Shown here piece by piece: positions 1,951 through 57,030 of a stretch of DNA of 64,000 nt. The notes below the pieces were generated by a model. It was not told the DNA's origin and did not search any database. It saw nothing but the letters and a program-made list of their open reading frames with translations. The first letter of the stretch is position 1; the number at the start of each line of letters is the position of its first letter. The position numbers and the translations under genes are program-made. The stretch comes from Mustelus asterias (Eukaryota): positions 19,654,001 through 19,718,000 of the forward strand of contig NC_135816.1 in the NCBI RefSeq assembly GCF_964213995.1, given 5' to 3'.

Positions 1951-3535
1951 AAGTCCTCATCTGGACAAAAACCATTTCAGTCAGTTCGAGTAGTTACTGT
2001 TTACTGGTTGACGATCACTCTCTTTATCACAGCTTTCTGTACGAGGGAGTGTTCTGAGAGGGAGGTTTTGTGACAGTGTCGTAAAGCCACTCACTCCTGG
2101 CCAGCCATCACAATGCCTGGATCCAAGTTGGGGAGAGAGAGTCTGACACTTGGACTGAGAGATTATTTCATGAGGAGAAGTTGTGAATTGATTTATTAAT
2201 CAGAGAAGAACTTGGAGATGGTACATGTGACAAGATTTTGAAGTCCACCAGATTAATATTGAATAATGCTAATTAATTAACATTACTACAGGTAAACACT
2301 GCTTGAATCCCACATCGTGAATTCAGGTCCAGCAGAATTGTCTCAGGGACTAATTTCAATTTTCTAGGTTGGCCAGAGAGGAATTTAACTGATTCTACCC
2401 TCCTTGCAGCCTCACTTTGGCCAGTGTTCTTAACTTTTTTTTTGCCTTCCATTTGTTTTTTGAGTGGGGTGGTGATATGATAAAGAAGGGGCAGGGATGT
2501 CAGCTGGAGACTTGTTGGGTGGAAAAATTAGCATCCGGAGTTAATGTGTTGGTTTCATGTCGCCATTCCTCCCACCAGCAATTTCCCTCTTGACAGGAGA
2601 AGGTGGGACTTGACAACCTACCAATTTTGGGAACGAGGCCAATTAATCTTGACAGCGAGCTCACTGTCCGTTCTTGAATTTGTTGAGGCTGCACAAATTG
2701 CCTGCCGGATCAAGGACTGATCAGGTGCCTGTAGGTGGCAACACAGTAGAGTGGCAGTCATGACTGTATCATCAACTTAGGTAGGCTTTGAATAGATAGC
2801 TGCTCGATGGCTGGTACAGACATGATGGGCCGAAGGGCCTCTTTCCATGCTGTAAATCTCTGATCTACAAAAGGGAGCACTGCTGAAAGGGCCACTCAGC
2901 CATTGGTACACAGGTGCCATCAGTTGTCTGGAGGTTGCAGGGAGAGTGGTTTGTATGCATTTGGTCAGTGACCCCTGTAGCATAATGGGGACAAAAGAGG
3001 AAGGATCTCAGACGTCATTAGGAGTGCTGCTGAGTGGAAGTAAGGCAATAGCTGGTAATGGGTGCACAATTCTCAGAATGATGGGTCCGGTGGTGATGAG
3101 CAGCAGCAGAGCTAAAGATCATAGGATCCTTACAGTATAGAAGGAGGCCAGTCAGCCTATCGAGTCTGCATGGACAACAATCCCACCTAGGCCCATCCCC
3201 GTAACCCCACTCACTCACCCCACTAATCCCCCTAACACCAAGGGGCAATTTTTGAAGCTAATAAATACTAACAGAATGATTGTACAGTATAACAAAATCA
3301 TGTTCGACATGATTTTAATCCCTAGCTAAAAATTGGTAAAGGAATGATCCAAATGTTATAAATGTGTTTAATGTTGAATATATCCAGACAGAGTTGTTCT
3401 AAAGTTTGACACATTTTGTTTTTAAAGTTATGTAACTGCTGTATGTAGTTTCTGTATAATTTTATATTGATATTACCAGATCTTTTAGCATTTGTCATAA
3501 TGCCACATTTTAAACCTGTTTTTACTTTTCAAGTC

Positions 3536-3724
3536 ATGTCAGTTCATTTTGATGAAAGAAGTGGTACCGTGCGCTGCAAGACCCCATGGGGAGAATGGTA
3601 TCAGACCATGGAAGAAGTTTTCATTGATGTCCAGGTTCCAGTTGGAACATCTGCAAAAGAAATCAAATGTAGTTTGGGGAGTAAAGATGTAGCGTTGTTC
3701 GTCAAGGGGAAAGAGATACTGAAG
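3536..3724 (+). CDS. NUDCD2: NudC domain-containing protein 2, coding exon 1
   Basis: Encodes MSVHFDERSGTVRCKTPWGEWYQTMEEVFIDVQVP...KEILK. AG acceptor at 3532-3533 and GT donor at 3725; 189 nt. Confidence 0.95.
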
Positions 3725-3755
3725 GTAAACAGATCCCTTATCTCTCCTTATACTT

Positions 3756-20192: not shown

Positions 20193-20919
20193 GTGAGCAT
20201 TAGTTACTATGATACAGGTGCAACCGAAGGCAGAATGTCTGCTTGGAATCTTTAGGCGTACAGATTCGAATTACAGTTGCATCGAAATTCTGGCCAAAAC
20301 TTTTTTTGAACTTCTCTCTTTGAGCCGGTACCTCCACCAGTTGTCGACAAAGTATAAGAAGCAAATATGGATTAATGTCTATTTAAATCAGCATTTTCTC
20401 TGCTGTTGTATCATTGAGCAGCCTTGGTATAAAAATAGTTGACATTTTTACCAGTTTGTGTTTCTTTTAATCCCCTCTTCCAAGTGTTGTGCTATTTCTT
20501 CTAAGGGGGGTGGGCAAGCAATCTCTACATAGGCTGACCTCTCGTCTATCATCAGGAGATACACAGTCATAAGCTGGATCGTTTCCTCAACGTTCTTTTC
20601 TCCCTCTCCTGAGGGCTGTCATCTGTTTTCTGCTCTCTACTTCCTCCTACTCACAATTGGGAATTCACCACATGGGAAAATGAGCCTGGGAAGCTGCATC
20701 CTGTCACTCTGTGCACGATGGAGCTCACTGGCAACATGTTAATTTAGCAGTATTACTGAATTCGGAGATTACTCCATTCCCTCTGTAAATTCCCACACAA
20801 GACACTTTCCATCTTTTATGAAACAGCATGAATTTAATTTGCTCCCAGTAGCGTAGTGATAGAAAGATTTGTTTTCCCCCATTGGCACGATTCTAATATA
20901 TTGTGTATTTTTCCTGTAG

Positions 20920-21140
20920 TTTGTGGACCAGCTGGAATTCCTCCTGCAGTTATACCATCAGGTTCTTCAGTAGCCTCTGAGAAGATGCCACCACCACCAC
21001 CACCTCCAAAGCAATCTGGCCTGTCCAGCAGTTGTAAACCAGTGCAAAGTGCAGCAGTTACACCTGATTGTGAAGTAAATGTGGAAGATGTTTTAGCTCC
21101 ATTGAATAAGACACTGGAGGTTTGTAGGAAAACTGTTAAG
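20920..21140 (+). CDS. SRA1: SRA1 exon 3 (proline-rich)
   Basis: ctgtag|...MPPPPPPPK...VEDVLAPLNKTLEVCRKTVK|gtaagc; 221 nt, phase consistent. Confidence 0.92.
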
Positions 21141-22996
21141 GTAAGCAGACAGTCAATGATATTCCTACAGCAGGGCTTTAAAAATCTCATCCCAGTAAGT
21201 TCTAAGAACAATGGTAGTGCTGCAGATTCCTGATGAGGAATTGGTCAACAAAGACTGTATTGATATTCTCTTGTTCAACTCAATTACTGTGTGTCATCTT
21301 AAACTCTTTGTATGATTAACAACATTGCACTGTAAGAGGTAAAATCTGATTAATTACACACTGAAATTTTTGCCTCAGAAGTACTGAACACAGCCAGTTG
21401 TTGTTCCACAAAATAGAAGGTAGAGAAGATCGCTCCAGTATTCCCACATGCTTCAAAGCACCTGACTGTAGAGTTAGCTTAGCAGATGTGCAGTAGCTAG
21501 TTGGTTGGAAATGGTGAATGATGGAAGGCTAAAAGGAGCGAAGGAATGATGCTACATACCTATTCTTAAAATATCATGTAATCAGCCTTGATACTTGCAT
21601 ATCAGAAATGTTGATGTAAGAGGGGACAAATTATGTTGAAAATGTATATAGTAGGTAGCGGAATAAACTGTGTGGAACAGAATAAGCAAGATTTTCTATT
21701 GTTGTAGAAAAGGCTTGCATTTTACAAGAACATTCCAAAATTCTACCAGACAGCAAATGATTTAAAACTACCATTGCCTTATTTGCAAATATGGCAACCC
21801 TTGTTAGCACAGCAAGCTCCTGCAATTAGCAATGACAATAAATGACAATTTCCTTTTATTTTTTTCAATCATATTGGCTGAGGGAAGAATATTGACCAAA
21901 ACACTCCAGAAAACATGCTGCCCATTGAAGAATGATGTAGACTTTCTAATTTAACTGAACCATTGGAACAGGAAAGTGGGAGGTTAGTTTAACACCAGAC
22001 CTGAAGGAAGGCCCTTCTCGCACTAAAGTATATCCTCTGCACAAATATCAGCTTTGATTGTGTGCTCAAGTTCTGGTTTGAAGTTAGAATCAACAACTTT
22101 ATAACAGGAGGAGAACATTCAGCCCTTTGAGCCTGCTCTGTCATTCACTTTGATCATGGCTGATCATCAAATTCAATATCCCGATCCCCCTTCCTCCCAT
22201 ATCCTTTGATCCCTTTAGCACCAAGAGTTGTATCTAATATCTTTTTGAAATCGGACAACGTTTTGGCCTCAACTACATTCTGTGGTGGTGAATTCCACAC
22301 ATTCACTACCTTCTGGGTGAAGAAATTTCTCCTCTCTTCTTATCCTCAAATTATGACCCCTAGTTCTAGACTCCAGAACTCGAGCTGTTACTTGGATAAC
22401 AAAACTGATATGCAGAGAAGCAGCAACATACACGTAGTAGTTCTGTTTCCATTGAAAGGTGTGTCAGTTATTTAGTGCAGATAAAACAACCTGATAAAAA
22501 GTTGATTGTACCAGTATGATGTTATGTAATAGTAGGAAATTGGATAACAGCCATAATTGCCCTTATTCCCAGTTCCCAAATTCAGGCTATAAATTGAGCT
22601 ATAAATATCAGCTTTGATTGTGTGCTCAAGTTCTGGTTTGAAGTTGGAATCAACAACTTTCTAACATAGAAACTAGAAGCAGGAGCAGGACATTCAGCCC
22701 TGGAAAATTCATGTCACTGAATCAATAATCACCCCTCGTCATTTCTTCTGTAGCAAAAGCCACTGTCAGTTTGATTGCCCACATATAGGAATTGTGGATA
22801 ATACAGATGGATTTTAACCAATAAATTGATGATATAGCAGTGGAAATAACAGTATAATAATGACATTTTAAAGTGATATTTTGATGGCAGCTGTTAGGGG
22901 TCATGAAGGGTATTGTGTTATTTTGAATACTTGCAAAAGTTTTAATGTTCAACATTTAATAATTGAAGGCATGTTGTTTCCAAACTTTTTGTCTAG

Positions 22997-23105
22997 AAAC
23001 AAGTTTGTGATGATATGGGCAGAAGGCTGATAATGCTCCAGGAGATGTGGCAATCAGGAAAACTATCCATATCAGTGCAAAAAAGGATGCACCTCCTCAC
23101 ACTAG
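22997..23105 (+). CDS. SRA1: SRA1 exon 4
   Basis: [36 protein letters not shown]+g|gtaatg; 109 nt. Confidence 0.95.
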
Positions 23106-23518
23106 GTAATGAATTTGTTATGTCTTGCATCTTGTCCAAATTCTTGTATATGAGGCTCGAGGGGCCCGAATGACCAACTATCTTTCCTGTACTGCTGAGT
23201 GAAATAGAGGAGGTGAAACAAGATTTGTTTATTTAGATAGAAACCTTTTTGTCATTGTAACTGAGAACTCTTTGTAAAATGACAGCTCTTTATAAAATTC
23301 TAATGATTGAAATTTTAATGTAATACAGAAGTGCCTAACCTGCAGCCCTTAGGAGATTTATGGCCCTTGAACCTGTACAGTTTGGACCATGGAATACAAG
23401 CAACTCCGTGTCTATTTTATGTATTTTTTTTTATCGGTGGCTTGTCCTGTAATGGCTTGTTCTTCTCACTCTTTCCTAATTGACGGCTATGTCCTAAATC
23501 AGAACAGAATCATAGAAG

Positions 23519-24697
23519 CGGTTGATGTGGTGTATATGGATTTCAGCAAAGCGTTTGATAAGGTTCCCCATGGTAAGCTTTTGCAGAAAATACGGACACA
23601 TGGGATTGAGGGTGATTTAGTGGTTTGGATCCAAAATTGGCTAGCTGTAAGAAAACAAAGGGTGGTGGTTGATGGGAAATATTCATCCTGGAGTTCAGTT
23701 ACTAGTGGTGTACCGCAAGGATCTGTTTTGAGGCCACTGTTGTTTGTCATTTTTATTAATGACCTGGATGAGGGCGTGGAAGGATGGATTAGTAAATTTG
23801 CGGATGACACTAAAGTCGGTGGAGTTGTAGACAGTGCGGAGGGAAGTGGCAGGTTACAGAGGGACATAGATAAGCTGCAGAGCTGGGCTGAGAGGTGGCA
23901 AATGGAGTTTAATGCGGTAAAGTGTGAGGTGATTCACTTTGGAAGGAGTAACAGGAATACAGAGTACTGGGCTAATGGTAAGATACTTGGTAGTATGGAT
24001 GAACAGAGGGATCTGGGTGTCCATGTGCATAGATCCCTGAAAGTTGGCACCCAGGTTGATAGGGTTGTTAAGAAGGCGTACGGTGTGTTAGCGTTTATTG
24101 GTAGAGGGATTGAGTTTCGGAGCCAGGAGGTCATGCTGCAACTGTACAAAACTCTGGTGTGGCCGCATTTGGAGTATTGCGTACAGTTCTGGTCGCCGTA
24201 TTATAGGAAAGATGTGGAAGTGTTGGAAAGGGTGCAGAGGAGATTTACCAGGATGTTGCCTGGTATGGTGGGAAAATCGTATGAGGAAAGGCTGAGGGGC
24301 TTGAGGTTGTCTTCGTTAGAGAGAAGAAGGTTAAGAGGTGACTTAATAGAGGCATACAAGATGATCAGAGTATTAGATAGGATGGATAGTGAGAGCCTTT
24401 TTCCTCGGATGGTGTTGGCTAGCACGAGGGGACATAGCTTTAAATTGAGGGGTGAGAGATATAGGACAGATGTTAGAGGTAGGTTCTTTACTCAGAGTAG
24501 TAAGGGCGTGGAATGCCCTGCCTGCAGCAGTAGTGGACTTGTCAACATTAAGAGCATTCAAATGGTTATTGGATAAACATATGGATGATATTGGAATAGT
24601 GTAGATTAGAGGGGCTTTAGATTGGTTCCACTGGTCGGCACAACATCGAGGGCCGAAGGGCCTGTACTGCGCTGTAATCTTCTATGTTCTATGTTCT
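23519..24697 (+). mobile_element. 5'-truncated CR1 LINE (RT C-terminal half) inserted into a SINE tail
   Basis: Motifs YMDFSKAFDKVPH, GVPQGSVL, FADDTK and LEYCVQFWSP. Tail tctatgttctatgttct, with minus-strand SINE pieces on both sides. Confidence 0.92.
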
Positions 24698-25179
24698 AAT
24701 CCCTACAGTGCAGGAGGAGGCCATTCGGCCCATTGAGCCTGCAACGACAACAATCCTACCCAGGACCCATCTCTGTAACTCCAAGTATTTACCCTGCTAA
24801 TCCCCCTGATACTAAATGGCAATTTACCATGGCCAATCCACCTAACCCGCACATCTTCGGATATACCGCTTGGAATACCAAGATCTGTTAGCACCAATAG
24901 ATAGCGAAATGCGTTACAAAGACAAAAGGCTTCCTGATGTATGGGATCTAATTCAGAATTATTTCCTCAGAACAGTGTTTTATCCATGTTTACGAGATTG
25001 CATGAGCAGGTTGTCTGATGAGGTTGGACAGGTAGGGCTTGTTTCCACTGGAGTTTATGAGAATGGGAAGTAACTTGATTGAAGTATATAAGATCCTGAA
25101 TGGACTTGACAAGGTGGACGTGGAAAGGATGTTTCTTCTTGTGGGTGAGCCCAGAGTTAGGGGTCACGTTTTAAAGTTA

Positions 25180-25725
25180 AGAAAGCCCACCAACGTCTCT
25201 ACTTTCTCAGAAGAGTAAGGAAATTTGGCATGTTAGCTACGACTCTCACCAACTTTTACAGATGCACCATAGAAAGCATTCTTTCTGGTTGTATCACAGC
25301 TTGGTATGGCTCCTACTCTGCCCAAGACCGCAAGGAACAACAAAAGTCGTGAATGTAGCCCAATCCATCACACAAACCAGCCTCCCATCCATTGACTCTG
25401 TATACACTTCCCACTGTCTCGAAAAAGCAGCCAGCATAATTAAGGACCCCACATACCCTGGACCTTCTCTCTTCCACCTTCTTCATATAATTCAAAAGTC
25501 TGAGGTCACGTACCAACTGACTCAAGAACAGCTTCTTCCCTGTTGCCGTCAGACTTTTGAATGGACCTACCTTGCATTAAGTAGATTTTTCTCTACACCC
25601 TAGCTATGACTGTAACACTACATTCTGCACTCTCTCGTTTCCTTCTCTATGAACGGTATGCTTTGTCTCTATAGCACGCAAGAAACAATACTTTTCACTT
25701 TGTTAATAATAATAACAATAAATCA
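25180..25725 (+). mobile_element. Rex1/Babar-type LINE 3' fragment nested in an older CR1 end (about 24950-25990)
   Basis: NFYRCTIESILS / ITQTSLPSIDSVYTSHC / KNSFFP-type sequence plus the tail. Confidence 0.8.
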
Positions 25726-26103
25726 AAAAATTAGGGTTAGCCTTTATAGGACAGCGATGGGCAGAAATTCTTTCTCTCAGGGTTGAGCGACTTTGGAACA
25801 CTCTCAGAAAGTGGTGGATCATTGAAAATTTTTAAGGCAGAGGTGGGTAGATTCTTGCTACGCAAGGGAATCAAAGGTTATCGGGGGGAGATGGGAATGT
25901 GGCACTCAACACAAACAGATCAACCAGGATCCTACTGAATGGCAGAGCAGGCTCAAGGGGCTGAATGGCCCACTTCTGCTCATATTTGGTATAATTGTAC
26001 CTCTTTCCCTGCCTTTTAGCAGCACATCTTTGTATTGTTTTAAGTGTTTAGCTACAATGACATTTTAAGTCCTAAGAATATGTTGTATATGTTTGTCTGA
26101 CAG

Positions 26104-26273
26104 AAATGGAGCACTGCAACTGGGATTCTGCTGATGAAATCCACAGATCTTTGATGGTGGACCATGTGAATGAAGTGGGACAGTGGATGGTCGGAGTGAA
26201 ACGCCTCATTGCTGAATCCAAAAATCTACCATCTGACCTTACTGCAAACAGAGATTGTGAATCAGAAAACTGA
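26104..26273 (+). CDS. SRA1: SRA1 exon 5 (last)
   Basis: [38 protein letters not shown]...SEN*. Total CDS 654 nt = 217 aa. Confidence 0.95.
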
Positions 26274-28917: not shown

Positions 28918-29147
28918 ATTATAACGTAGTGTCAGCATCAAAACTCTGAATTTATTTGAAGATCTGCATCTGAATGGCTGGTGAGTGGATGTAGAATTGG
29001 GAATTCTGAACTAGAGCAGGTGCAAGCCAGAGGTGTGAACAGTGGGTGGGGGCTGGGAACCTTTGTTCCGAGGTGCAGCGGTTGCGCCGGAGTGTTTTGA
29101 GCGCGGGGGCCGCTGGCACAGCCGCTGCTGGGGTGGGTGTGTGGAGG

Positions 29148-29290
29148 ATGAACAGCCTGACCGCCCGCTTCAACTCGCTGTTCGTCTTCACTCTGATGGT
29201 GATGGCGGCGCTGACTTTCCTGGTGTTCCTGAGTACAGTGTTCCAGCAACCCCGGGTACCAGTCAACATCCGTGTGGGCAGCATCTCTCT
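29148..29290 (+). CDS. Signal peptidase complex subunit 3-like (SPC22/23), exon 1
   Basis: MNSLTARFNSLFVFTLMVMAALTF...VPVNIRVGSIS|gtgagt, with an N-terminal transmembrane helix; 143 nt, in a small CpG-rich patch. Confidence 0.92.
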
Positions 29291-29914
29291 GTGAGTGCGG
29301 CTGGCAGCTCTAACTCTTCACCTTGTGGGGTCCAGCACTGGAGACTGGGCCTCGCTTACAACCTGATGCAAATTGACAGTTCCCCAGGAAAGGCAGTGGA
29401 GAAGGGGGGGATTTGTTTTGTAGAAAATCAAGGCGGAGGGGTTGACTATATAGAGATGTATTGCAAGTTGAGAGTCTTTGTTAATAACTAGAGTTACTGT
29501 GTACGCCCTGGTGGGTCAGGAGTACAGGTGGGTCTTGAGAATTAAGTGTAGAGGAGGAGTGAAGTTGGTTCTGTTGTGAAGAGTCCAAAACAAACATATA
29601 ATTTCAAAGAGTATCTCGGGAGTAAATCAGAATGGTTAGATTGTGGAGCTTGCGGCATATGAGGTGCATGGTATAGATAGGTGCCTTTATGGGAAAGGTA
29701 GGTGAGCAGTGAAGGAGAAAGGAATAGGATGGCATGCGAAGCAGAGTCAGGTGAAGTAGGATGGAAGATACCAGCATAGAGCAGTGAGACCAAATGACCT
29801 GTTTCTGGTCATTTTGTCAGTAATGCTCCTTTCACTAACTGCACAGCTGGATTTGTGTTCTCAAATTTAGTTTGTCTCAGTTTGTCTCCTCTGATAACTT
29901 GGAATACAATCAAA

Positions 29915-30180
29915 AAGTAAAGTTTATTTATTACTCACAAGTAAGGCTCACATTAACACTGCATTGAAGTTCCTCTCGTCGCCACACTCCACTACCTGTT
30001 CGGGTCAATGCACCTAACCAGCACGTCTTTCAGACTGGGAGGAAACTGGAGCACTCGGAGGAAACCCACGCAGACAGGGGAGAATGTGCAAACTCCACAT
30101 GGATAGTGACCCAAGCTGGGAATCGAACCCGGGTCCCTGGCGTTGTGAGAAAGCAGTGCTAACCACTGTGCCACCGTGCC
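29915..30180 (-). mobile_element. V-SINE, alternative tail
   Basis: SINE head and core on the minus strand. Confidence 0.85.
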
Positions 30181-30189
30181 ACCCAATCA

Positions 30190-31455
30190 TCTCTGGGAAT
30201 AATAAGACAGATTATTACTTGAATGGATGTAGATTGAGAGAGATGGATACTCAACGAGACCTTGGAGTCCTCGTGCATCAGTCGCTGAAAGTAAGCACGC
30301 AGGTACAGCAGGCAGTAAATAAGGCAAATGGTATGTTGGCCTTCATAGCAAGAGGATTTGAGAATAGAGATAGAGATGTTTTGCTGCAATTGTATAGGGC
30401 GTTGGTAAGGCCACATCTGGAGTATTATAAGCAATTTTGATGTCCTTGTCTGAGGAAGGATGTCCTTGCTATTATGGAAATTAAGTTGCAACAATGATGG
30501 CAGACAGCTCCGTCAGCAAGAATGGAAAGTGCTTATGTGCAGGCAAGGCCTAGGAAAGGTCAGTGGTTGCTTATTCAGAGAAGTGACTAATCTAACCTTG
30601 TGTCAGTTTCTTAAACACTGTATTCCCGGCCATGGTCGCAGGATGACCAAAGCCAAGTACCAGAACAAATACCAAAAACAAGATGTGGTGACATATTATG
30701 CTAATGATGGATTAGAAGGAGATGGTTTCTATTGGATAAGAAAGGACAATAAGCTATACTATAATTGGTGGACTATGTATGTAAGTTCAGGATTAGAATG
30801 TTGCTAGTTTCTCGTTTGCTGGAATGAACTATAACTGCAAATCAACTGTATGAATCGATGGAACACCGAGCAGTGCATCCCACTGTGTGTGTTCTCCTTG
30901 TGCACAAATAATAAAGCTTGAAAGTTTGAGTACACTTGGTGCCATAGTTTTGATTGTACCCAAGTCGACTACACTATAGAGGGAGTACAACAAAGGCTGA
31001 TTCCTGGGATGGCAGGTCTGTCATATGAGCATAGACTAAATTGGTTAGGATTATGGTCAATGGAATTTAGAAGAGTGAGAGGGGACCTCTTAGAAACTTA
31101 TAAAATTCGAACAGGGTTAGACAGGGTAGATTCAGAAAGAATGTTCCCAATGGTGGGGGAGTCCAGAACTAGGGGTCATAGTTTGAGGATAAGGGGTAAA
31201 CCTTTTAGAACTGAGGTGAGGAGAAATTTCTCCACCCAGAGGGTGGTGAATGTGTGGAATTCACTGCCACCGAATGTAATTGAAGCCGAAACGTTGTCTG
31301 ATTTCAAGAAGAAATTAGATGTAGCTCTTGGGGCTAAAGGGATATGGGGGAAAGGGGGATCAGGATATTGAATTCGATGATCAACCTTGATCAAAATGAA
31401 TGGTGGAGCAGGCTCGAAGGGCTGAATGGCCTCCTCCTGCTTCTAGTTTCTATGT
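30190..31455 (+). mobile_element. CR1 3' fragment split by a solo LTR
   Basis: QRDLGVLVH...LVRPHLEY lies before the insertion and MAGLSYE...RTRGH after it. Confidence 0.85.
30473..30973 (+). mobile_element. Solo LTR (501 bp)
   Basis: 4-bp TSD ctat (30469-30472 and 30974-30977), termini tat...aca, and AATAAA near 30910. Removing it restores the CR1 sequence. Confidence 0.7.
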
Positions 31456-31768
31456 TAATGAGAGGTATAGACTGATTCATAGCTTCTAAACATTAATTCT
31501 CGTCTATCTTTAGCATGTCTCCATTATAATTTTAACAATGTTATTGGTTTGTTATTTTCAAAATCCCAATCCTGAATTACATGCTGGCTTTCGTGTATGA
31601 GACAGTATAAAACGCTGTCTGAGGAGAAGTAGTAGAAACTGCTGTTAACTCTTTAGTAATTATATTTTATTTACTATAAATAATTTACATTTATTTCTGT
31701 AACCAAACATACCATCGTTTACATTGAGCAGGAGGAAAGGTTGAAATGAAAAGTGATCTGAAGCACTG

Positions 31769-32097
31769 GGGCGGCACGGTGGCACAGTGGTTAGCACTGC
31801 TGCCTCACAGCTCCAGGGACCTGAGTTCGATTCCCGGCTTGGGTCACTGTCTGTGTGGAGTTTGCACATCCTCCCCGTGTCTGCGTGGGTTTCCTCCGGG
31901 TGCTCCGGTTTCCTCCCACAGTCTGAAAGGTGTGCAGGTTAGGTGCATTGGCCATGCTAAATTGCCCCTTATTGTCCCGGGATATGTAGGTCAAAGGGAT
32001 TAGTGGGGCAAATGTGGGGATAGGGCTTGGGGTGGGATTGCTCTGTGCAGACTTGATGGGCTGAATGGCCTCCTTCTGCATTGTAGGGTTTCTATGA
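31769..32097 (+). mobile_element. HE1-like SINE
   Basis: Full head, core and CR1-like tail. Confidence 0.88.
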
Positions 32098-34282
32098 TTA
32101 AAACAAAAAGGTACTATTTGAGGATAAAGAACATTTGGGTAAGGCAATGAGAGTTTGAGACATGATGGGCAAAATCCAGCGGTTTGTGATTGAAGGCTCT
32201 GACACCCATGGTGGAGCAGCAGAAAGAGGGAAGGGGGCAGGGGCACAGTAACCAAATGTGGAAGAGCAAAGAATGTGTAATAGAACGTAGCAGAATGTGA
32301 AGATTTTGAAATTCATGTGCTGGTGCACGTGGAACCAGTACAGATGAAACATGTGGATATTGGCTGCCTGGGAAAAGATGGAACCTACAGAACTCTAGAC
32401 GAGATCGACTTTTCTTGGCTTGGAAAAAAAAAATCAAACCTCATGGTAGGAAGGATACAATTGAGCGTTTTTAACTACAGTGGAAATCTGGCCAAGTGAT
32501 GTCTGGTTAGATGTTGGAGCAACGTAGAATTTGAAGCTGACCTGGTGCTGAGAAATATAGTGACCCAATGCTTCAGACCGTGGGGATTTTTATTTAATAA
32601 TACTATCCCACTGGTATCATTTTCAATATCATCTGAGCTTTTCATTGTAAGGGTTCATATTATAATTGACAGCCTGTTTTTTCTGTTACTTCATTCACTA
32701 CAATTCGTTTTATTATTGTCCCATTCCTTAATTTGTCATTTATTAGAATGAGAATTTAAGTACAGTTTCAGTTTTGCGTAATTTTGGAAAGCTATGCCGT
32801 ATTTTTCAGATTATTTCCTGTCTTGATATACTAGGTTTACCAGCTCTGATGTCTCTTGATCAGTATCCGGCCTTGACAGTCATTGCTGGATTGTTTGGAG
32901 CAGATTGGCGTAGAGCTTGTGACTGACATGAAATTAAACACCTCCTCCTCTTGATTTGTTGTTGATTCAGGAGAATAGTACAAAGTTAGAAGTTTAAAAA
33001 TGTGTTTTGTTTCCTATCTACAAGTATTAAAGAATCCAAACCATTCTAAGTATCATCCTGAACCTAACTCCTTCAATGTATTTCAGTCCTGATGTTGTGT
33101 TTTATTCATTAGTATTCTTGCTTTCTATTCCTATTTAAGTTAAAATTTACACCTTGTAAAATTAAACTTAGCACATCAGATGTACAAGTTTCAAGTATCA
33201 TTTCAAACAAAGTACAAGTTCAAAGGTATCCCAATGCAGTCTACTTTTGTGCTCCACATTATCACCTGATTCTTCAATCCTCTTATTTTACAGTATATTT
33301 CAGTCAACTTGTCCATATTCATTATGATAAAAGACTGCTTCAAAACCAATTACTATAATTTTGGATGATCATGACTTTTTCTACTAACAAGAATGGGAAT
33401 AGAAAATGGAATTCATGGAAATTTATAGTAATATAGGTGTACTAAGTAGTTTACTCAAGTTCTTCCCCCACCTCCCCATTTACTGTTATAAGGTGCAGAA
33501 ATAATGGTAAAATTATTAATTTGCTTTAAATATACACCCATTACTTTTACATACTGTGTGGCAGAAAATTCCCTGATAATCCCTGCAGTATTGATGTCAC
33601 ATTTATTACTCTTTCAGTGTGAACATCATCATGCATGAATGATGCCACCCCATGGATTTGGGCATGGATTACAGCACCAAGTGTCAGTTTAAGCCAGGTA
33701 TTATGTGGGCCTTGCAATTCATAACATAACTAATTAATTGAATTACTGCCTAATAGCTCCCTCCCAACCAACTGCTATCTTACATGTCGATATCAGCAAA
33801 TTTCCCAGCAGTGAAAATAACTCTGTTATTATTGTATGAAAGTGTCTGTGGCAGCCACCGGCATGCGGTGGACATTTCTCAAAGCTGTTTCCATTTCTCT
33901 TCACCGCAAGAACAAAGAGATCAGCTCTGGAAAATTTTGCAAAATGGTTGAATAATTTATTGCTTAAAAAAAATTCCTTGTGCCTTTTCTGTTTTTAAAT
34001 TGTAAGACGTTTCACAACACCAGGTTATGTATCCACATCATGTATTTAAATTGTAATGGGTGTATTCTAGGACATTGCCTAGGTAGTGATAAACTAACTT
34101 TTCACCCACTTTGTGAAACTTTGTGAATTTTCACTATCAAAAAAAAAGCTTCAAGTGTGTGAAATGATAAGGTAAGATCTCTTCTGCTGTACATGTGGGG
34201 AATATAAGAGCATAGTACTGTGGGGGAAGGAGAGGAAGAGTGTTGCCTGTGTTTTGGAGTACATTTCTTTTTTCTATTTCAG

Positions 34283-34347
34283 AAAACAATATGAAGATTA
34301 CACCGGAAAGTATGATTTAGGATCTGTACATTTTAGCATTTATGTTG
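34283..34347 (+). CDS. SPCS3-like exon 2
   Basis: tttcag|a KQYEDYTGKYDLGSVHFSIYV g|ATATCCTTT (U12 donor); 65 nt. Confidence 0.88.
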
Positions 34348-35349
34348 ATATCCTTTTTTATACGTTATTCACTAAGCTAAGGACTGGGATTCTTGGTTAG
34401 GTATAAAAATGTAGGAATTGCTAAATGAATAAAGACCACTGTCCATCTAATTTGCCTCCTACCATCCCAGTCGTTGCATGGTACAAAGATAATGATGGTA
34501 TTATCGAGCCCTGACACTTATTTTACAATATTCACTGATAGCAGGTCCTTAACTTGCCCACACAATCTGTGACATGTGAGACATTAATACCCAGCTGCTC
34601 AACATTGGTTATGTAATCTGAAAACGGAAAAATACTTGGGGCTAACCAGGCCAAAAAAGAAAATGGTACTGTTTCCACTGGCAGAATGCATAAGATAATG
34701 AGCAAAGAAATTCAAGAGGAGCAATGAGGAGACATTTTATTCTGCATGGAGTTGTTAGGATCTCAAATGTATCACCTGAAAAAAACTGGTGGAAGCCATC
34801 CAGTGTCATCTTTAACAAAGGAATTCAATATATAAATCATCATAGAAACCCTACGGTACAGAAAGAGGCCATTCGGCCCATCGAGTCTGCACCGACCACA
34901 ACCCTACCCCCATATCCCTACATATTTTACCCACTAATCCCTCTAACCTACACATCTCAGGACACTAAGGGGCAATTTAAGCATAGCCAATCAACCTAAC
35001 CCGCACATCTTTGGAATGTGGGAGGAAACCGGAGCACCCGGAGGAAACCCACGAAATGAAAAAGAGAAAATTGCAGGACTAATGCAAAAGAACAGTGGAG
35101 AGAGGTTGATTGAATAGCTTTTTCAAAATTTCAACACAGGCACAATGGACCAAATGGCCGCCTTCTGTGCTCTTTGATTCTGAGGTGAAACAACCCCAAA
35201 CTGTGGAGATATTTGGGAATCTTAGATCCAAGTCATCTATTCTTCCCGAGCACATTACATTTACAATCCAAAGTTACCTGTTCTTCCCGAGCACGTTACA
35301 TTTACAATATGCCATATATTACTTGTTTGTGTCACAAAATATGTTCAAA

Positions 35350-35985
35350 TCAGGAGTAGGTGTAGGCCACTTGACCCCTCAAGCCTGTTCCGTCATTCGG
35401 CTGATCCAACCATAGCCCCAGCCTCACATTCCTGCCTACCTCAGTAATCTTTCACCCCCTTGTTAATCAATATCTAGCTCTGCCTTAAAAATATTCAAAG
35501 AATCTGCTTCTGCTGCCTTTTGAGGGAGATTGTTCCAGTGATTCATGACCCTCGGAGAAAAACATTTCTCCTCATGTCTGTCTTCAATGACCCCTTATTT
35601 TTAAACAGTGATACCTGTTTTAGATTCTCCAACAAGAGGAAATATCCACTCCACATCCACTCAGTTACTACCCCTCAGGACCTTAAAAGTTTAAATCAAG
35701 TCGCCTCTTACTCTTCTAAACTTTAGTGGATACAAACCTAACCTCCACAACCTTGCCTCCTAAGGCAAGCTGCTCATTCCTGTCTACTAAATCTTCTCTG
35801 ATCTTCTAAAGCATCTTTCCTTAAATAAGGAGACCGATACTGTACACTACTCTAGATTTGGCCTCACCAATGTCCTGTACAACTGAAGCATAACCTCCCT
35901 ACTTTTATAATCAATTCCCCTCACAATAAAAGAGAAGATTCTGTTGGTTGCCCTAATTACTCACTTTACCTGTATACTAGCTTAG
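35350..35985 (-). mobile_element. Degraded CR1 3' fragment
   Basis: The reverse complement resembles the other CR1 ends (LYRTLVRP-LE region and 3' UTR). Confidence 0.65.
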
Positions 35986-36582
35986 CCTGTATTGCTGAAA
36001 TAAGTGTATCTCATTTAAAATTTGATGGTATTTTACCATTTTACCATGGAGTACAATTTTTTTCCACCATATCCCTATGAAGCCTGTTTCAAAAATTTAC
36101 TACTTGCTCATGGAAATAAGCTTTCCAAGTTATAACATAAATGCAGATGCCTGAATTCTCCATATAGCATGACCTGCCCAACCTCAAGGGCACCCCTCAC
36201 TGCACCAGTGTAATGTTTTTCCCTTTCACTCTTCAGCCATTTTGTTTGGATTGGTAATGCAAATTTGGTGTTATTTAATGCTGAATAATGGCCAGCTTGG
36301 AGAAAGACCAAATTGGCTTCATGTCTTAAAGCCAGCAGATGGTAAGGAGATTCATCTCCTTACTCTGGGCTGGATTTGAACCAAGGTACTAAGCTCTGTT
36401 AGCTTTTTCAAATTCTCTTAATTTCTTTTTTGCTAACCCATTTTTCCAATTATTCTGTCATCTTCAAGAGTAGATTGCAGGAACAGTTACCTTTGGTTGC
36501 TGTTGTGCACCAGCTGTTTTGACAGAAGCATGGATCAAGAAAAGGTCAGACAGAGCACAACCTGGAAAGGAAGAGGTCATTT

Positions 36583-36888
36583 GTGGCACAGTGGTTAGCC
36601 TCACAGTGCCAGGGACCCGGGTTCGATTCCCGGCTTGGGTCACTGTCTGTGCGGAGTCTGCACATTCTCCCCGTGTCTGCGAGGGTTTCCTCTGAGTGTT
36701 CCGGTTTCCTCCCAAAGTCCAAAGTTGTGCAGGCTAGGTAGATTGGCGATGCTAAATTGCCACTTAGTGTCAGGGAGACTAGCTAGGGTAAATACATGGG
36801 ATTATGGGATTGGGCCTGGGTGGGATTGTGGTTGGTGTAGACTCATTGGGCCGAATGGCCTCCTTCTGCACTGTAGGATTCTGTATGA
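36583..36888 (+). mobile_element. HE1-like SINE
   Basis: Head, core and tail. Confidence 0.85.
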
Positions 36889-36985
36889 TCCACATTCGGC
36901 AAATAGCCATGTTATCAAACTGCTTATTATAGGGGACTTGTATGAATTTATCCAAAACCCATATTTTCTTTAATTATTTATCTAC

Positions 36986-37062
36986 ATCTGGGACCTGTAT
37001 TCAACTGGAATGTTAAACAGCTTTTCCTGTATCTAGCAGCGGAATATGCTACAGAGAAGAAT
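36986..37062 (+). CDS. SPCS3-like exon 3
   Basis: DLGPVFNWNVKQLFLYLAAEYATEKN|gtaagt, containing the SPC22 family signature WNVKQLFLYL; 77 nt. Confidence 0.95.
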
Positions 37063-37380
37063 GTAAGTTGAATTTGCAAAGACGTGGCACATTGATAATA
37101 TGCAGACTGCCTACAATACGTCCATTTAGATGTACTGTTTACATATTCTTGCCTTTAATCATTAGTTGTTTGAGTATGATGTTCCATATTTTCAGTAATT
37201 TGACTCCTTTGTAATATTGCACAGCAGCATGTTACTGCTTTATTCTGTGCCTCATTGTAATATTTACTTTGACAGCATAGTGCAGTCTTATGATTTCTTC
37301 CTGCACCTCTTTTTCTTTATTAATGACTTGAAATTTGATCATTCCAACTCTTGTTTTTGTTCTGTTAACTTTCAACATAG

Positions 37381-37496
37381 ACATTGAATCAAGTGGTTCT
37401 ATGGGATAAAATCCTTCAGCGAGGAGAGAACCCTAGACTTAATCTTCCGAATGTGAGCCCTAAATATTTATTCTTGGATGATGGAAATGGTCTGAA
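37381..37496 (+). CDS. SPCS3-like exon 4
   Basis: [20 protein letters not shown]...[11 protein letters not shown]; 116 nt. Confidence 0.95.
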
Positions 37497-38057
37497 GTAA
37501 GTTTTTTAAAATTCTATTATTAAGAAAATAGAAAGAGGAAATTTAAAGGACTTTGGTGGACAATGTAACTTTTCTTGTTTGTTAACTATATTTTGCTGCT
37601 ATAGCACTCTGTTTTGGAGGATTGACATTTTGCACCAATTGGGGTCTTCAATAAAATCATACTTTTTAATATTCTAGGTTATAAGCTCTGTTTGGGAATT
37701 ATTCTACAATTGTTGTTCAAGAAGCATCAGTACATTGAATGATCCTCATGTCCACACCATTGTCACCTCCAATGTAGTCATTCCTTCACTGTCGCTGGGC
37801 CAAAATCCTGGAACAACCACCCCCCCACCCCCACCTTAATAGCACTGTGAGAGTGCCTGCACTTCATGGACTGCAGTGGTTCAAAAAGGCAGCTCACTCC
37901 CACCTTCTCGCGAGTAATTAGGGATTAATGCTGGCCTAATCAGTGACCCCACATCCTTTGAATGATTTTTTAAAAATCTAATGCTCCCTTGGCTGCCCTC
38001 ACATCCTCCATAAACTTCAGAAACTCTGTTTTGTTTATATCCTAACCTGGACTAAGG

Positions 38058-38325
38058 GGTAGCACAGTGGTTAGCACTGCTGCTTCACAGCGCCAGGGAC
38101 CTGGGTTCGATTCCCAGCTTGGGTCACCGTCTGTGTGGAGTTTGCACACTCTCCCCGTGTCTGCGTGGGTTTCCTCCGGGTGCTCCGGTTTCCTCCCACA
38201 TTCTGAAAGACATGCTGGTTAGGTGCATTGACCGGAACAGGTGCCGGACTGTGGCGACTAGGGGAACTTCACAGTAGCTTCATTGCCGTGTGTAAGCCTT
38301 ACTTGTGACTAATAAATAAACTTTA
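38058..38325 (+). mobile_element. V-SINE, alternative tail
   Basis: Head and core plus the gactaataaataaacttt tail. Confidence 0.85.
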
Positions 38326-39769
38326 ACCCATCACCCCATGCTCATTGATCTGTAGTGGTTCCCATTCTCCCAGTATTTCAAACTAAAAATTCTCTCCTTG
38401 TCCAGGCCCTTACACCCCTTCCTATCTCTAATCATGCCAAACTCTACAACCCTTTGAGAACTAAGAATTCCGACAGCTCTCGTCTTTCGTGTTCCTTGAA
38501 ATCCCATAATTGTTGCAAGTCATTCCACCAGCCAGCTCGACTCTGAGCTCTGGAATTTCCTCACTAAACCTCTCCAGCCCCCTCTCTTAAGACACTACTT
38601 GAAATCAGCTGACTTGAATAAGTTTTTAGTCACCTCCCTCTTCTGCATCTAATGTCTTCTTTGGCTCGGCATCAATTTTTGATTAATTACACTTCTGTGA
38701 AGCACCGTAAAACATTTTTCTACATTAAAAGTGTTATACAAATGCATGTTTTTTATTGGGAGGTGGGGATTAAGAATGGATTCAGTGAGAGTATACAGTC
38801 AATGGTGAGAATGTACACTTTCAACTTTTCTGCAATGTTGTTGTTTATCTACTAGTTTGTCTTGCTTCTGGATTATTCTTCTTTCTTGTAAGAGATTGGC
38901 AATTTTTGCTTGAATAATATAATCTATCAGCGTGATCGTTTTCTACATATTGGAATGAGTTGAGGACTTCCATTGCAAAATAACTCACCCAAGGGGAACT
39001 GTGGCACATAGCCGACTAAGTTCATAATGTGGGCCTGTACATTTGTGTGTGAAATGATGGAATGTGTTGTGGGTGATGGAAGTAACAGCTTGCTGTCTCA
39101 GCCGCATTCAAGATTGAGAAACTACAGTATGGAAATTGTGAATCTTTGGAGTAGAAATACATTGTGATCCTACAATAACTATTGATTTTACAGTGCCCTT
39201 GACATAGTAAAGCATTACAAGTTGCTTCACAAGACGGTTATCAAAATAATTTGGCACAAAACCATATCAGGAGATTTTAGGGCAGTTGGCCAAAAGCTTG
39301 GTCAGAATGTTTTGAGGACTGTCTTCAAGGAGGGTAGAGAGGTGAAGAGTTGTAGGGAGAAAACTGCAGAGTTTAGGACTTGGGCAGCTAAAAGTATGAC
39401 CATCTATAGTGGTGCAATTAAAACTGGGATTGTGCAAGAGACCAGAATTGCAATAGTGCAGAAACAGTACCAATATTTTTGTGACATTATACTTATGATA
39501 TTCCCTAATCCCTTTCATTTCATCTGTGTGTTTTAAAACTCCTATGGACTTATAAACATCACTCCATGATGCAGGAGGAGTACCTCTCATCTCCAAATGA
39601 CAGTTCAGAGCAAACAAAAGGGGGGATTTTCAACATATCTTAATGTGAATCTAAATGTCTAGTGTTGGCAAGACCTTGGTTCTGGAATTGTCAGATGATT
39701 GTGATTTGAACGATGTGTAGCTACTGTTAATGTTTTTTTTCACTTTCTTCCCCCTCGCCCCTACCCCAG

Positions 39770-39902
39770 AGGAAATCAGAATGTCTCCTTGTCCCTTTCG
39801 TGGAATATTGTTCCAAATGCCGGAATCTTGTATCTAATACCTGCCTCTGGTCAGAAAGTAATACCATTACCTGAAAATTATGACAATTTGAGAAGTTGTT
39901 GA
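39770..39902 (+). CDS. SPCS3-like exon 5 (last)
   Basis: GNQNVSLSLSWNIVPNAGIL...PLPENYDNLRSC*. Total CDS 534 nt = 177 aa. AATAAA at 40020-40025. Confidence 0.95.
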
Positions 39903-40428
39903 TACAGAAGAGAAAGGGTTGGTTACAGGTCTGAACCATGCAATTATATATTTAGGATGCTACTTCCATTGCCGTGTCTAAACATTTTGTAATTTTATTA
40001 AACAATGCCCAATGTTTTTAATAAAAGACTGCTAAAGAAACTTCACCACCCCTTTTACTTATTAGATGGTTTCTAGTGTTGCTCCTCGAACTCGGGTCAA
40101 TTGATGCTATGGACAAAGACACTTGAACTCTCGAATTATTGTACAACAGATCTCTGTTATTGTACACTACCACAAAAGTCTCAAACTCTACAGCACAAAC
40201 TTTAGTACACAAGGTATCAAAACCTTGTTACACACAAAGTATTCATTATACACAAAAGTATGTAATCTCTGACCTACTTTGTTATACACACTATTCAAAA
40301 GCTTCACAAAAAATATCCAAACTTTGACTTCGATACTACCGTGGTGAGTTAATCAGACACCCTGCCGATGGGTTTTGTTCTGATATCTCCCAAGTTCCAG
40401 ACTCAGGGTCTTGTTGCAATGATTATTA

Positions 40429-43850: not shown

Positions 43851-45331
43851 CATCACTGCCCCTTAAAAAAGCCAAGGAATTAAAAAGCACATGGTCTCCT
43901 GAAACAAAGAACACTTTCAAATTCCAAGCTTTAGATCCCCTTTTTTTTCCAAATTTGTATTCAGAGCACCAAGCTCAAACTGATTATTTCCAAATCTCAA
44001 TTTATACACTTTGATTTTTTTAAATTTTCCATTTACTCTGAGATTTAAGTTAAAATTAAATTCCACAATGTTGATCATTACTCTAATACATATATTTGTT
44101 TATACAATATGTAATTTTTTTGAGCAATGATTGTGACCAGTAACAATGCCCAAGATTCAGGGATTTCAAATGTTTACCTTGTTTCAGATTAGACTTTTAG
44201 TTCAGCTCGCAACTCCCATTTGATTTTAAAACATTAAATTAAAGCAACAGACTTTACATGTTCACATATGCATTTACAACACAGCAAAGAAAAATCCACA
44301 CACATTAAACACACTCATTTCTCATGGAAGCTTTCCAACACATCATCTCCACAGCATTTAACTTTGCTTTCATTGAATCTTAACAATTTAGAACTGAAAT
44401 GAAAATAGAATATTCAATCAACAAAAACAAAGAAAATAAATTCAGACATTAGTCGTCTTTCTTCAAAAATTATAATTAAAATTAAGAGAAAGATAAATTC
44501 TAATGAAATTATAAACAACATTGTGAGCTTAACAATCAATCTTTAATTGTTACAGTTGCCTTGGGCTATGGGCATGGGTGCGAGTGAGGCTGACGGTTCC
44601 GCTGCATACTCGTCATGCTGGGAATTATCCCAGGGGTCATCCCTATCCTCATATCTCTGGGCCTCATCAACCATACCCCCTCAATCTATATTGATGTCTA
44701 ACAAACCCCTGTGAGTTGGCAGTGGAGACTTCGATTTGTCACTGTCTCCATCTATCCCTCGATCCTCAGAAGCGCACGTCATATCACGTTGAGCTGAGAG
44801 TTGCAACTTAAAATTGTCTTTTTCTGACATTTCGTGTGGTCAGCGATTTCTCTCCTGTATTTGATTTATGCAAAATCTTCACAGCAGCCTGTGAATCACT
44901 ACACTTCTGCTCTATCTCCACAACCCTCTGGTTAGCTGTGTTCCTTTCTCGCACAGCTTCCTATCTGCTTTCTCACACTGTCTGCAATTGACTCATATGT
45001 AACACTTGCATTTCATTTCTTTGTTCAGCCTCTAATGTTCTAACATGCCATGTACCAAATTTCTGTTTTGCAGCACTCAACTGCTGCTTCAGTTTACTGA
45101 TCTCTGTCTCCGTCTCTCTCACACCTTCGTACAACTGGCTGTTGCTGCGGCCTTACTTAACTTGGGAGGTGCGTGTCCCTTTGCCCCTCCGAGCTTCTTC
45201 CTAATGCTGCTGATCAAGTCGACCCCAACCCTCAAAATCTTATCAGCATATTATACCCATTTTGGCCACTTGCCATTCAGATACACTCCGCCTTGTTCTT
45301 CACAAGCAATTTGCTATCTGCCATTAACCAA

Positions 45332-46608: not shown

Positions 46609-46609
46609 T

Positions 46610-47050
46610 CCTGCACGAAGATGGCGCTCTCAGGGATGATTTGAATTGCCCAGTGCGCATGCGTTGGAAGCCTGACATCGCTGCTGTCGTCATGCCGCGC
46701 TTCCACGTGCCTAATAGGGCGGCTCTGATTGGCTGAGCGCCACTCGGGGTGTATTGACGACGTGATCGGATTGGCGAAATCCAGCGTAGCAACGGCGCCA
46801 TTTTGTTCGCGGAGCCGAAAGCTGCGGAACTGGAAAATTTAAAAATCGCCGACAGCCCCTCCAGGGTAAGAGTGAAAATATCCCAGCGGTGAGTGACGCG
46901 GGCTCCTGGCGGTGCTGGCCCCGGGCTTTGGTGCGCGGCGCGCGATGGCCGGCTCGGGAGGTATTGCGGGATCCCCCTCCCCCTCCCCGCAGTGTGGGCA
47001 GCGCTGGCGGAGACACAGGACAATAAGGCTGCAGCTCATTGGCCGCTAGC
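46610..47050 (+). promoter_or_regulatory. HMGXB3 CpG-island promoter and non-coding exon 1
   Basis: NRF1-like TGCGCATGCG (about 46654), two ATTGG boxes, and YY1 motifs in both orientations (AAGATGGCG at 46618, CGCCATTTT at 46796). Donors GTAAGA at 46866 and GTGAGT at 46889. Confidence 0.75.
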
Positions 47051-54690: not shown

Positions 54691-55844
54691 CAGCTAAGTG
54701 TAGGAAGGGTATTCCAGAGCTTGGGGCCTAGGTAGCTGAAGAGATAGGCATCGATATTTGAGTGATTGAAATAAGGATTGCACTAGGGGCCAGGTTTAGA
54801 GAAACGTTGGTATCTCAGAGGGTTGTGATGCAGGAACAAACTGCAGAGATAACGGAGGGTGAGGCTGTGGAGGGATTTGAAAATAAGGATGAGAATTTTA
54901 AAATCAAACTTTTGCTTAACCAGGTGACAATGTAGGTCAAAGCACGGGTGATATGGAAATGGAACTTGCTGTGAGTTAAGACATGGACAATTTGATGACC
55001 TCATATTTATGGAGGATAGGACATGGGAGACCAGCAAAGAGTAGTATTGGAGCAGTAAAGTCTAGAAATAACAATGGCATGAATAAAGGTTTCAGTAGCA
55101 GATGAGCTGAGACGGGCAAAGTTGGGCAATGTTCCATAGTTAGATTTGAGGAATGAAGCTCATCTTTGGATCAAATGTGACACCATGTCTGCGAAGAGAC
55201 TGACTTAATCTCAGACTGTTGCTAGTGAGTGGTAACTAGAGACTAGAGTTTGGAGGGTGGAATGAGAAAGCTTAAAGGAAGTAACTGTTCATCTCATATT
55301 GGATATCAAATAAGCCATCTGATAATTTAGCAATAGCAGGAGGAAGCAAGAGAGGTTATAGGGAAGTAGAGTTGAATTTTGTTAGCATACATGTAAAATC
55401 TAAAGCTGTGTCTTCAAATAGTGTCGCCAAAGGGCAGCATTTAGATGAAAATTAGCAGAGGGCTAAGGATTGAACTTTGGGGGACATGATAGACAACAGG
55501 AAGAGATGCTATTGCAAATGAAGCACTGATTATGACATAACCCAAGATGTGCGGGTTAGGTGGATTGGCCATACTAAATTGCCCCTTAATGTCAGGGTGA
55601 TTAGCTAGGGTAAATGCATGGGGTCATGGGGATAGGGCCTGAATGGGATTGTGGCTGGTGCAGCCTCGATGGGCCGAATGGCCTCCTTCTGCACTGTAAG
55701 ATTCTATTCTAGGATTCTATGATTGGTAAGAATGAAACCAATCATTGTAATGACAACAATTTTACCAAATTTCTCTTTTTTGTTAATTTTCATGCAGCTG
55801 ATATAGTATTGTGCTTTAAATTGTTGTTTGTTTGTTTGTTTCAG

Positions 55845-56019
55845 GCCAGCATATTTACTGTACTATTATGATACTCATTTAAAAGTACAACAAGACTTTC
55901 CGAATTTGCCCCGGTCTGAGATAAACAAGAAAATCAGTGAAAGTTGGAGGCGGCTCAGCGTTGCTGAAAAGGGCATTTACCTTGAAAAGGCAAAACTGGA
56001 AAAAGAAGGAATAGATCCG
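55845..56019 (+). CDS. HMGXB3: HMGXB3 HMG-box exon
   Basis: RPAYLLYYYDTHLKVQQDFPNLPRSEINKKISESWRRLSVAEKGIYLEKAKLEKEGIDP; 175 nt. Confidence 0.95.
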
Positions 56020-57030
56020 GTAAAAACTTTCTCTTCTCGCTACAATAGATAGATCTGCAGGTTAAAATATTTTTCTGCTCTGCCCTTAATAAGATCCCTT
56101 ATTAAACCCCTTCTGAGTAGTCAGGCAGTCATTCAGCCCCCAGTGGTATTACAATGTGTCAGAGTAAGCAGCAATGATTTGTATTTTTATATATCTTTCT
56201 CTTTCATAGACAAATGGAATGAATAAGTTATGTAATGCTGGGGGAATGTGGGAGGAAGGGACAAGTGAGTGGCCAAAGATAGCCTGGTCAGTTATCAATG
56301 CCTCAATTGGAAAGATCAGGAGGAATCATGAGATTGAGGGGGTAGCTGCGGTTTGGGGAGTTTCTGTGGAGGGTCAATTATGAATGAGTGGGAGCACAAA
56401 GAAATCATAGGGAAATTAAGGGTATCCAGTTGTACTATTGAAGTCACTAAGTTGATGGAGTCTCCTGTTGCAGAGGATAGAGGAGATTTCAGTGACGAAC
56501 ATGACCTTTGAGAGGGCAGAGCACAAATATTTACAGTGGGGCTGGATTAACTGGATTGTATTTGTCCATATTAAAAGCTATATCTGGATTCACTTTGCAG
56601 AGATTTATTTTAACGGTTTATCATTGTGCTGGTATCATACATCAGCAACATAAAGTATTGGATGTCTTCATCAGTCCTTAAAGCAGAAATGATCCCGAAT
56701 ATGTCTGTTTCTTATTAAAATAAGCTGTATCTAATTAAAGAAAAATAACACTGGAGTTCTCAAGACTTTTGTCTTGGGTTGAAAGAACGACATATTATTT
56801 AGCCTTCAGTTTGCTTGATATCATCTGAGCCTCTAATTTTGATGCTTAACTTGCAAGTGATTGCTCTTAAGTACCATTTTTCAGCTGCACTCTTAAACAT
56901 GCTATGGGCATTAGGATAATTTATTTCCAGCAAAATTGGAGACCCTGCCTCTTTATATTGGTTTTTGAATTTAACCACAATGCTATATAAATGAATCACG
57001 CTCACATTTTATTATTTTCTCTTTCCACAG

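Follow-up and report, generated by a model that had tools for sequence, protein, structure and literature searches.

Does the gene at positions 29,148 to 39,902 of a 64,000-nucleotide stretch of Mustelus asterias DNA (NC_135816.1, positions 19,654,001 to 19,718,000, forward strand; the window hereafter) encode a second form of SPCS3, the SPC22/23 subunit of signal peptidase? An initial annotation, made from the letters of the window, had read it as an intact but diverged SPCS3 paralogue and a candidate alternative subunit. The paralogue is real, old and constrained, and it belongs to two known kinds, the SPC22/23 proteins and the ohnologues retained by chondrichthyans. The reading we lean towards is that sharks and rays carry in it a second SPCS3, intact and spliced and likely a copy from the second round of vertebrate genome duplication (2R), which has a predicted SPC22/23 fold and would replace canonical SPCS3 in some signal peptidase complexes of the endoplasmic reticulum (ER).

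The paralogue is a five-exon open reading frame of 177 aa on the plus strand, open to its stop, as the initial annotation had it. Its translation is 100% identical to the protein record P0001, which its source names 'signal peptidase complex subunit 3-like isoform X1 [Mustelus asterias]'. The features of the gene, in window coordinates, are as follows.

29001..29300, plus strand: likely promoter and first exon, GC- and CpG-rich (GC 0.61, CpG observed/expected 0.64; GC 0.39-0.50 in flanking bins), spanning the start codon
29148..29290, plus strand: exon 1, coding for residues 1-47, which include the N-terminal helix and membrane anchor; human SPCS3 chains of the PDB are matched at E 2e-8
34283..34347, plus strand: exon 2, 65 nt, 9 nt shorter than the canonical exon, with part of the basic hairpin loop gone
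34348..36985, plus strand: intron 2, U12-type AT-AC, with a ATATCCTT donor, a branch-like TTCTTTAAT and an AC acceptor, common to the canonical copy
36986..37062, plus strand: exon 3, 77 nt, with the FNWNVKQLFLYL core; covered by spliced contigs in 4/4 runs
37381..37496, plus strand: exon 4, 116 nt, with the core LNQVVLWDK...DDGNGLK; the junction 37062 to 37381 is seen in contigs
39770..39902, plus strand: coding part of exon 5, with the NVS sequon (N138, equivalent to mammalian N141) and the stop
40020..40025, plus strand: poly(A) signal AATAAA, read from the sequence

Introns 1, 3 and 4 are of the GT-AG type. Intron 2 is an AT-AC intron of the minor spliceosome, a point that the initial annotation omitted, and the canonical copy has an identical donor and AC end. 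All four intron positions, that of the AT-AC intron included, are common to the paralogue and the shark canonical copy. The transmembrane helix (residues 2-31 of the structure model), the NVS sequon at position 138, the poly(A) signal at 40020 and an exon 2 that is three codons shorter (65 nt, the canonical one having 74) had all been named at the outset, and all are present. Exons 3 and 4 exceed the PF04573 family cut-off, and P0001 carries a precomputed PF04573 assignment. The X2 isoforms of three species (P0047, P0037 and P0112) differ near exons 2-3, which may represent alternative or faulty splicing. The introns of the paralogue are filled with fragments of short and long interspersed nuclear elements (SINEs and LINEs), and repeats are matched in about 27% of the window.

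Transcription of the paralogue is supported. The evidence consists of assembled contigs from four runs, none of them on record as RNA, mapped to 36900-38000, with a contig depth that is unfit for ranking genes. In 4/4 runs contigs join exons 3 and 4 across the 318-nt intron, and the spliced contig from run X14 has no differences from the window. Three contigs extend 10 letters into the end of intron 2; their 3 mismatches there are those expected from the end of exon 2, which hints indirectly at AT-AC splicing. All four runs also contain canonical-type SPCS3 contigs, which means that at the level of the sample neither copy strictly excludes the other. The paralogue had no match in the tissue supplements of PMC5568229 (10 of 20 files) or PMC4362833.

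The initial annotation had proposed a second SPCS3 in this genome, and a canonical copy is indeed found. An SPC22/23 family search of the genome itself gave 4 matches among 9 candidates; this and the other own-genome searches give lower bounds. The matches fall at two loci, the paralogue on C16 and a locus on the unplaced C450. C450 carries canonical SPCS3 exons 2-5 on the minus strand, with an exon 2 of 74 nt. Canonical exon 1 lies on C6 (C6:127393270-127393384, at 127.393 Mb, minus strand), where it abuts a run of 200 N and has a one-base frame slip; the run is probably an assembly gap and the slip probably an assembly error. Because canonical SPCS3 is split between C6 and C450, its database model (P0134) is truncated at 142 aa. 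The idea that C450 duplicates the C6 stretch around exon 1 was rejected, since the two overlap at the repeat level only. No processed copy of the paralogue was found in the own-genome searches.

Among the partner subunits, one intron-bearing locus each was found for SPCS2, SPCS1 and SEC11A, and no SEC11C locus was found in the same searches. Since only SEC11A was found, a single catalytic subunit may serve with two scaffolds in sharks. A SEC11A exon (C70:20728460-20728609) is identical to the human sequence over 50 residues. An open intronless SPCS1 (SPC12) frame of about 99 aa at C9:10091235-10091435 has diverged from the intron-bearing-looking locus at C3:141.06 Mb, and it is possible that this frame is an intact retrogene of a signal peptidase subunit. 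A processed SPCS2 copy at C4:30614114-30614551 is broken by a stop and deletions; the spliced SPCS2 gene is on C10.

A full-length protein search, of which the best 120 of 501 matches and their cluster members were considered, shows records of the paralogue for at least 17 named species of shark and batoid, each of them an automatic model called 'SPCS3-like'. No chimaera or bony-vertebrate member of the paralogue clade was found among these best 120 of 501 matches and cluster members, which is not proof of absence. The same set lists canonical copies but no paralogue for chimaera, Amblyraja, Rhincodon and Narcine. The retention in cartilaginous fish that had been claimed therefore stands for sharks and rays, as a 17-species clade, and does not extend to chimaera in these matches. 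We infer that the paralogue was lost in bony vertebrates and in chimaera.

The paralogue protein has 58% identity to the mammalian protein (P0021 core) and 55% to the shark canonical protein, against 84% between shark canonical and mammal. In exon 1, 24 of the 47 residues are shared with the mammalian protein, in line with the initial annotation, which put the share at about half. The overall distance to the mammalian protein is about that of an insect SPCS3 (56%), which is the ordinary subunit of its species. The M. asterias paralogue keeps 46 of the 49 family-invariant columns, that is, those invariant in 41 other rows. Among the paralogues themselves, 31/49 family-invariant columns are invariant compared with 37/128 others (p 5e-5), and 30 of the 49 family-invariant residues are unchanged in all 17. 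The sequon at the N141 position is kept in 17/17 paralogues, with extra sequons in most species. The best-kept segments are 74-112 (72% identity to mammal) and 127-157 (81%), the same segments that are best kept in hagfish and acorn worm. Synonymous sites between the two copies are saturated (pS, the proportion of synonymous differences, 0.80; dN, the nonsynonymous distance, 0.26; 98 codons). Three of the four listed differences in relatives' contigs are synonymous, a very small sample.

The origin of the gene is indicated by its neighbors on the chromosome. A PDGF/VEGF search located a VEGF-C-like gene 96 kb past the paralogue stop, on the opposite strand (C16:19.78-19.80 Mb, minus) and beyond the window, and a second VEGF gene on C450, 209 kb past canonical SPCS3 and tail-to-tail as well. 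Both are of the VEGF-C type: human VEGF-C is matched at E 4.5e-28 and 1e-28 and VEGF-D at 1e-20 to 3e-21, and three exons align. Four teneurin loci were found in the genome, among them TENM2 on C16 (22.4-23.2 Mb, plus) and TENM3 on C6 (121.6-122.2 Mb, minus). The C16 block is SPCS3-like (plus, 19.68 Mb), VEGF-C-like (minus, 19.79 Mb) and TENM2 (plus), with 2.7 Mb from the paralogue to TENM2. The C6/C450 block is SPCS3 (minus), VEGF-C (plus) and TENM3 (minus), and the two are collinear in order and relative strands. The SPCS3-VEGFC-TENM block was doubled. C6 also has matches to asparaginase-2 (126.7 Mb), CH_2 (127.5 Mb), the PLP family (128.3 Mb) and SAP30 (131.0 Mb), which we take to be AGA, SPATA4, GPM6A and SAP30 of human 4q34. 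The asparaginase-2 family exons at C6:126.68-126.72 Mb are doubled in tandem, likely a local AGA duplication. SAP30L was not found in the own-genome searches.

TENM3 and TENM2 are quadruplicates A and B of paralogon 15 (PMC8040251). Since (A,B) split from (C,D) in the first duplication round (1R), TENM3 and TENM2 parted at 2R (PMC8040251). Chicken 13 is listed as 2-beta in a supplement of PMC10115646, and beta segments show more gene loss and faster evolution (PMC10115646). The SPCS3-like and VEGF-C-like genes are on one contig in 13/13 species that have both on record (13 of the 16 paralogue species with a contig on record), and the chimaera has both VEGF-C genes, so the block dates back to the chimaera split at the latest. 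The VEGF-C-like genes of sharks, rays and chimaera form one clade (100/100), and the C16 gene is likely the 2R partner of VEGFC. With the doubled block on a published 2R pair, the ohnologue origin first suggested from the window is supported: the paralogue very probably originated at 2R, on the faster-losing beta chromosome.

The gene tree also sets the paralogue apart. The SPCS3 tree was built from 59 of 160 proteins, leaving out isoforms, mis-modelled proteins and most invertebrate rows. The paralogues form one clade (100/100) outside the canonical shark and bony copies (95/92), and cyclostomes are further out (91/79). The stem branch of the paralogue clade is long (0.53 vs 0.10). The SPCS3-like protein of the seadragon Phyllopteryx taeniolatus (P0045) was rejected as a clade member, as it is a long branch within the bony canonical copies; it is a different duplicate, probably of teleost origin. 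The VEGF-C proteins retrieved for gar and bowfin group with bony canonical VEGF-C; the second copies of these two fish were not found among 59 of 62 candidates.

The structure model consists of a helix at 2-31 followed by nine beta strands (predicted local distance difference test score, pLDDT, 80.7). Its best structural match is human SPC22/23, 7p2p_B (Foldseek E 4.6e-15; VIA Z 14.0, root mean square deviation 7.5, 177 aligned). Within the human complex, SPC22/23 clasps SEC11 with its lumenal beta sandwich, on which catalysis depends, and is glycosylated at N141 (10.1101/2020.11.11.378711). The SPC22/23 helix and SPC12 form one side of a thinned lipid window, which was defined with residues A8-N9-S10 and is thought to measure signal peptide length (10.1101/2020.11.11.378711; PMC13385932). 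The thickness of this window has been proposed as the cause of cleavage differences between yeast and human (10.64898/2026.09.20.752496). By homology, the paralogue is probably a type II membrane glycoprotein of the ER that would brace SEC11 with its lumenal beta sandwich and frame the lipid window with its helix. The protein would most likely swap into signal peptidase. It would be exchangeable with canonical SPCS3 and take its place in a share of the ER complexes, and the alternative complex would combine the paralogue with the common partners SPCS2, SPCS1 and SEC11A. The initial annotation had envisaged a distinct, possibly tissue-specific complex of this kind.

The mean hydropathy of the helix is 1.76-2.13 in the 14 full-length paralogues, compared with 1.46-1.70 in the jawed-vertebrate canonical rows. 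A more far-reaching proposal, which is tentative and in our view doubtful, is that sharks and rays make a third type of vertebrate signal peptidase, in which the scaffold and not the catalytic subunit varies. Here the more hydrophobic, Cys-free helix would reshape the thinned lipid window and, by analogy with yeast and human, shift which signal peptides are cleaved in particular tissues, and the second shark VEGF-C would be a 2R ohnologue and not a local duplicate.

Several results weigh against parts of this account, beginning with the date. With the same role, the paralogue could instead go back to a segmental duplication that stem chondrichthyans underwent once they had parted from bony fish. 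Joining the paralogues with the chondrichthyan canonical copies is compatible with the SPCS3 data (approximately unbiased (AU) test, p 0.112), as is a chondrichthyan duplication with those for VEGF-C (26 rows, p 0.147), and the VEGF-C tree leaves its three groups unresolved (72/47). Pooled site likelihoods give a one-sided Kishino-Hasegawa (KH) p of 0.051; the model used, LG+G4, is susceptible to long-branch pull. The listed matches (best 120 of 501) include no bony-vertebrate member, and PMC10328876 calls the shark VEGF-C doubles individual duplications. With AU p values of this size, the pooled p of 0.051 and saturated synonymous sites, the 2R date rests mainly on synteny. However, random insertion is not expected to place the paralogue 2.7 Mb from TENM2 in the order and strands of SPCS3-VEGFC-TENM3. 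The best trees of both genes put canonical shark with bony, and consensus site patterns are 6 (canonical shark and bony derived) to 0 (paralogue and canonical shark) to 1, with the seadragon row left out. A stem-chondrichthyan duplication is accordingly quite unlikely, and a 2R copy is preferred.

As for role, the paralogue may have left signal peptidase and be a membrane glycoprotein of the ER with a different job, as has been proposed for the mouse Arxes retrogenes, which are 82% identical to Spcs3 and do not share its function (PMC3082915). C26 and P158 are replaced in 17/17 paralogues (C26V; P158 by an aromatic residue or Cys) and are unchanged in all other rows that have a residue at the position, three hairpin-loop residues are deleted, and the changes F128L/F130L are fixed. 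These, with the long stem branch, fit a change of job, and the C26 and P158 replacements and the loop deletion could weaken or alter partner binding. The structural model was also built from an alignment that includes canonical rows. Another job is nevertheless unlikely: 46/49 invariant residues are kept, the best-kept segments are those of hagfish and acorn worm, and the 58% identity is close to the 56% of an insect SPCS3. A redundant, weakly used leftover under relaxed selection, contributing dosage at most and heading to loss, would account for a rate 4.2x that of the canonical copy (45 matched species pairs), faster still in batoids, for the four taxa without a listed paralogue and for the exon 2-3 skipping models in three species. 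The Mobula and Hypanus paralogue models (P0012, P0126 and P0127) lack their first 16-18 residues and have altered DDGN and WN motifs, so that in myliobatiform rays the gene has diverged further or is decaying. Open frames in 17 species, sharks and batoids, whose split dates to about 286 Ma (PMC10115646), the constraint on invariant columns and the synonymous share of the few contig differences make a leftover very unlikely. A pseudogene or assembly artefact, for which nothing beyond the divergence itself was found to speak, is close to impossible given the intact frame, the spliced contigs in 4/4 runs, one of them identical to the window, the orthologues in 16 other species and the separate chromosome context. 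A retrogene of the Arxes kind was also rejected, as the paralogue has four introns. The preferred reading remains a second SPC22/23 subunit that would work in signal peptidase.

Compared with vertebrate SPCS3 and SPC22/23 (PF04573; 7P2P_B), the paralogue has the same five exons and phases, the AT-AC intron 2 (relative to the shark canonical copy), the membrane helix, the beta sandwich, the N141-equivalent sequon and 46/49 columns. It differs in its 55-58% identity, the 3-residue loop deletion, the loss of C26 and P158 in 17/17, a more hydrophobic helix, extra sequons and the 4.2x rate. Like SPC-A and SPC-C, which contain SEC11A or SEC11C, it would give two versions of the complex through a duplicated subunit (10.1101/2020.11.11.378711), but there the catalytic subunit is doubled at ~80% identity and here the scaffold subunit at 55%. 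Mouse Arxes1/2 are likewise extra expressed SPCS3-like ER proteins beside the canonical gene (PMC3082915). Unlike the paralogue, they are young, intronless, 82% identical and limited to rodents and rabbit; the paralogue keeps its introns and its ancestral neighbor VEGF-C and is far older. The pattern is the same as in the 19 ohnologues kept by chondrichthyans and lost in bony vertebrates, such as wnt6b and cspg5 (PMC10115646), although SPCS3 encodes a housekeeping complex subunit. SPCS3 was not found in the searchable parts of the PMC10115646 supplements.

No paper describing the paralogue was found in a search whose coverage excludes most subscription journals, and it is unnamed in the accessible parts of PMC13756586 and PMC7269912. 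It appears to be new in that it is an SPC22/23 paralogue described in no paper found; databases already hold the automatic 'SPCS3-like' name. Signal peptidase activity depends on SPC22/23. A natural variant of 55% identity, which has coexisted with the canonical subunit over hundreds of millions of years, lends itself to testing whether this subunit tunes specificity. The gene would give sharks and rays an alternative signal peptidase form. If the paralogue alters signal peptide selection, these animals would vary the scaffold rather than the catalytic subunit. The shark synteny also bears on a question left open in PMC10328876, where the origin of the gar and bowfin VEGF-C doubles was considered perhaps unknowable without chromosomal context. 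In sharks this context is preserved and points to 2R for the second VEGF-C.

The other genes of the window were named in the initial annotation as SRA1, NUDCD2 and HMGXB3.

20838..26270, plus strand: exons of the neighbor SRA1 (PF07304)
3449..3754, plus strand: CS-domain exon, the earlier NUDCD2 (PF04969, E 1.9e-7)
55807..56049, plus strand: HMG-box exon, the earlier HMGXB3 (PF09011)

The SRA1 family assignment holds. For the other two the analysis confirmed the CS and HMG-box domains; that these are NUDCD2 and HMGXB3, genes of human 5q, is presumed. A LINE-type endonuclease frame of 306 aa is found at 13910-14827 (plus strand). Between the paralogue and the HMG-box gene, a coiled-coil-like frame with weak Pfam matches (44976-45152, minus strand) and a CpG island (46501-47000) possibly belong to another small minus-strand gene.

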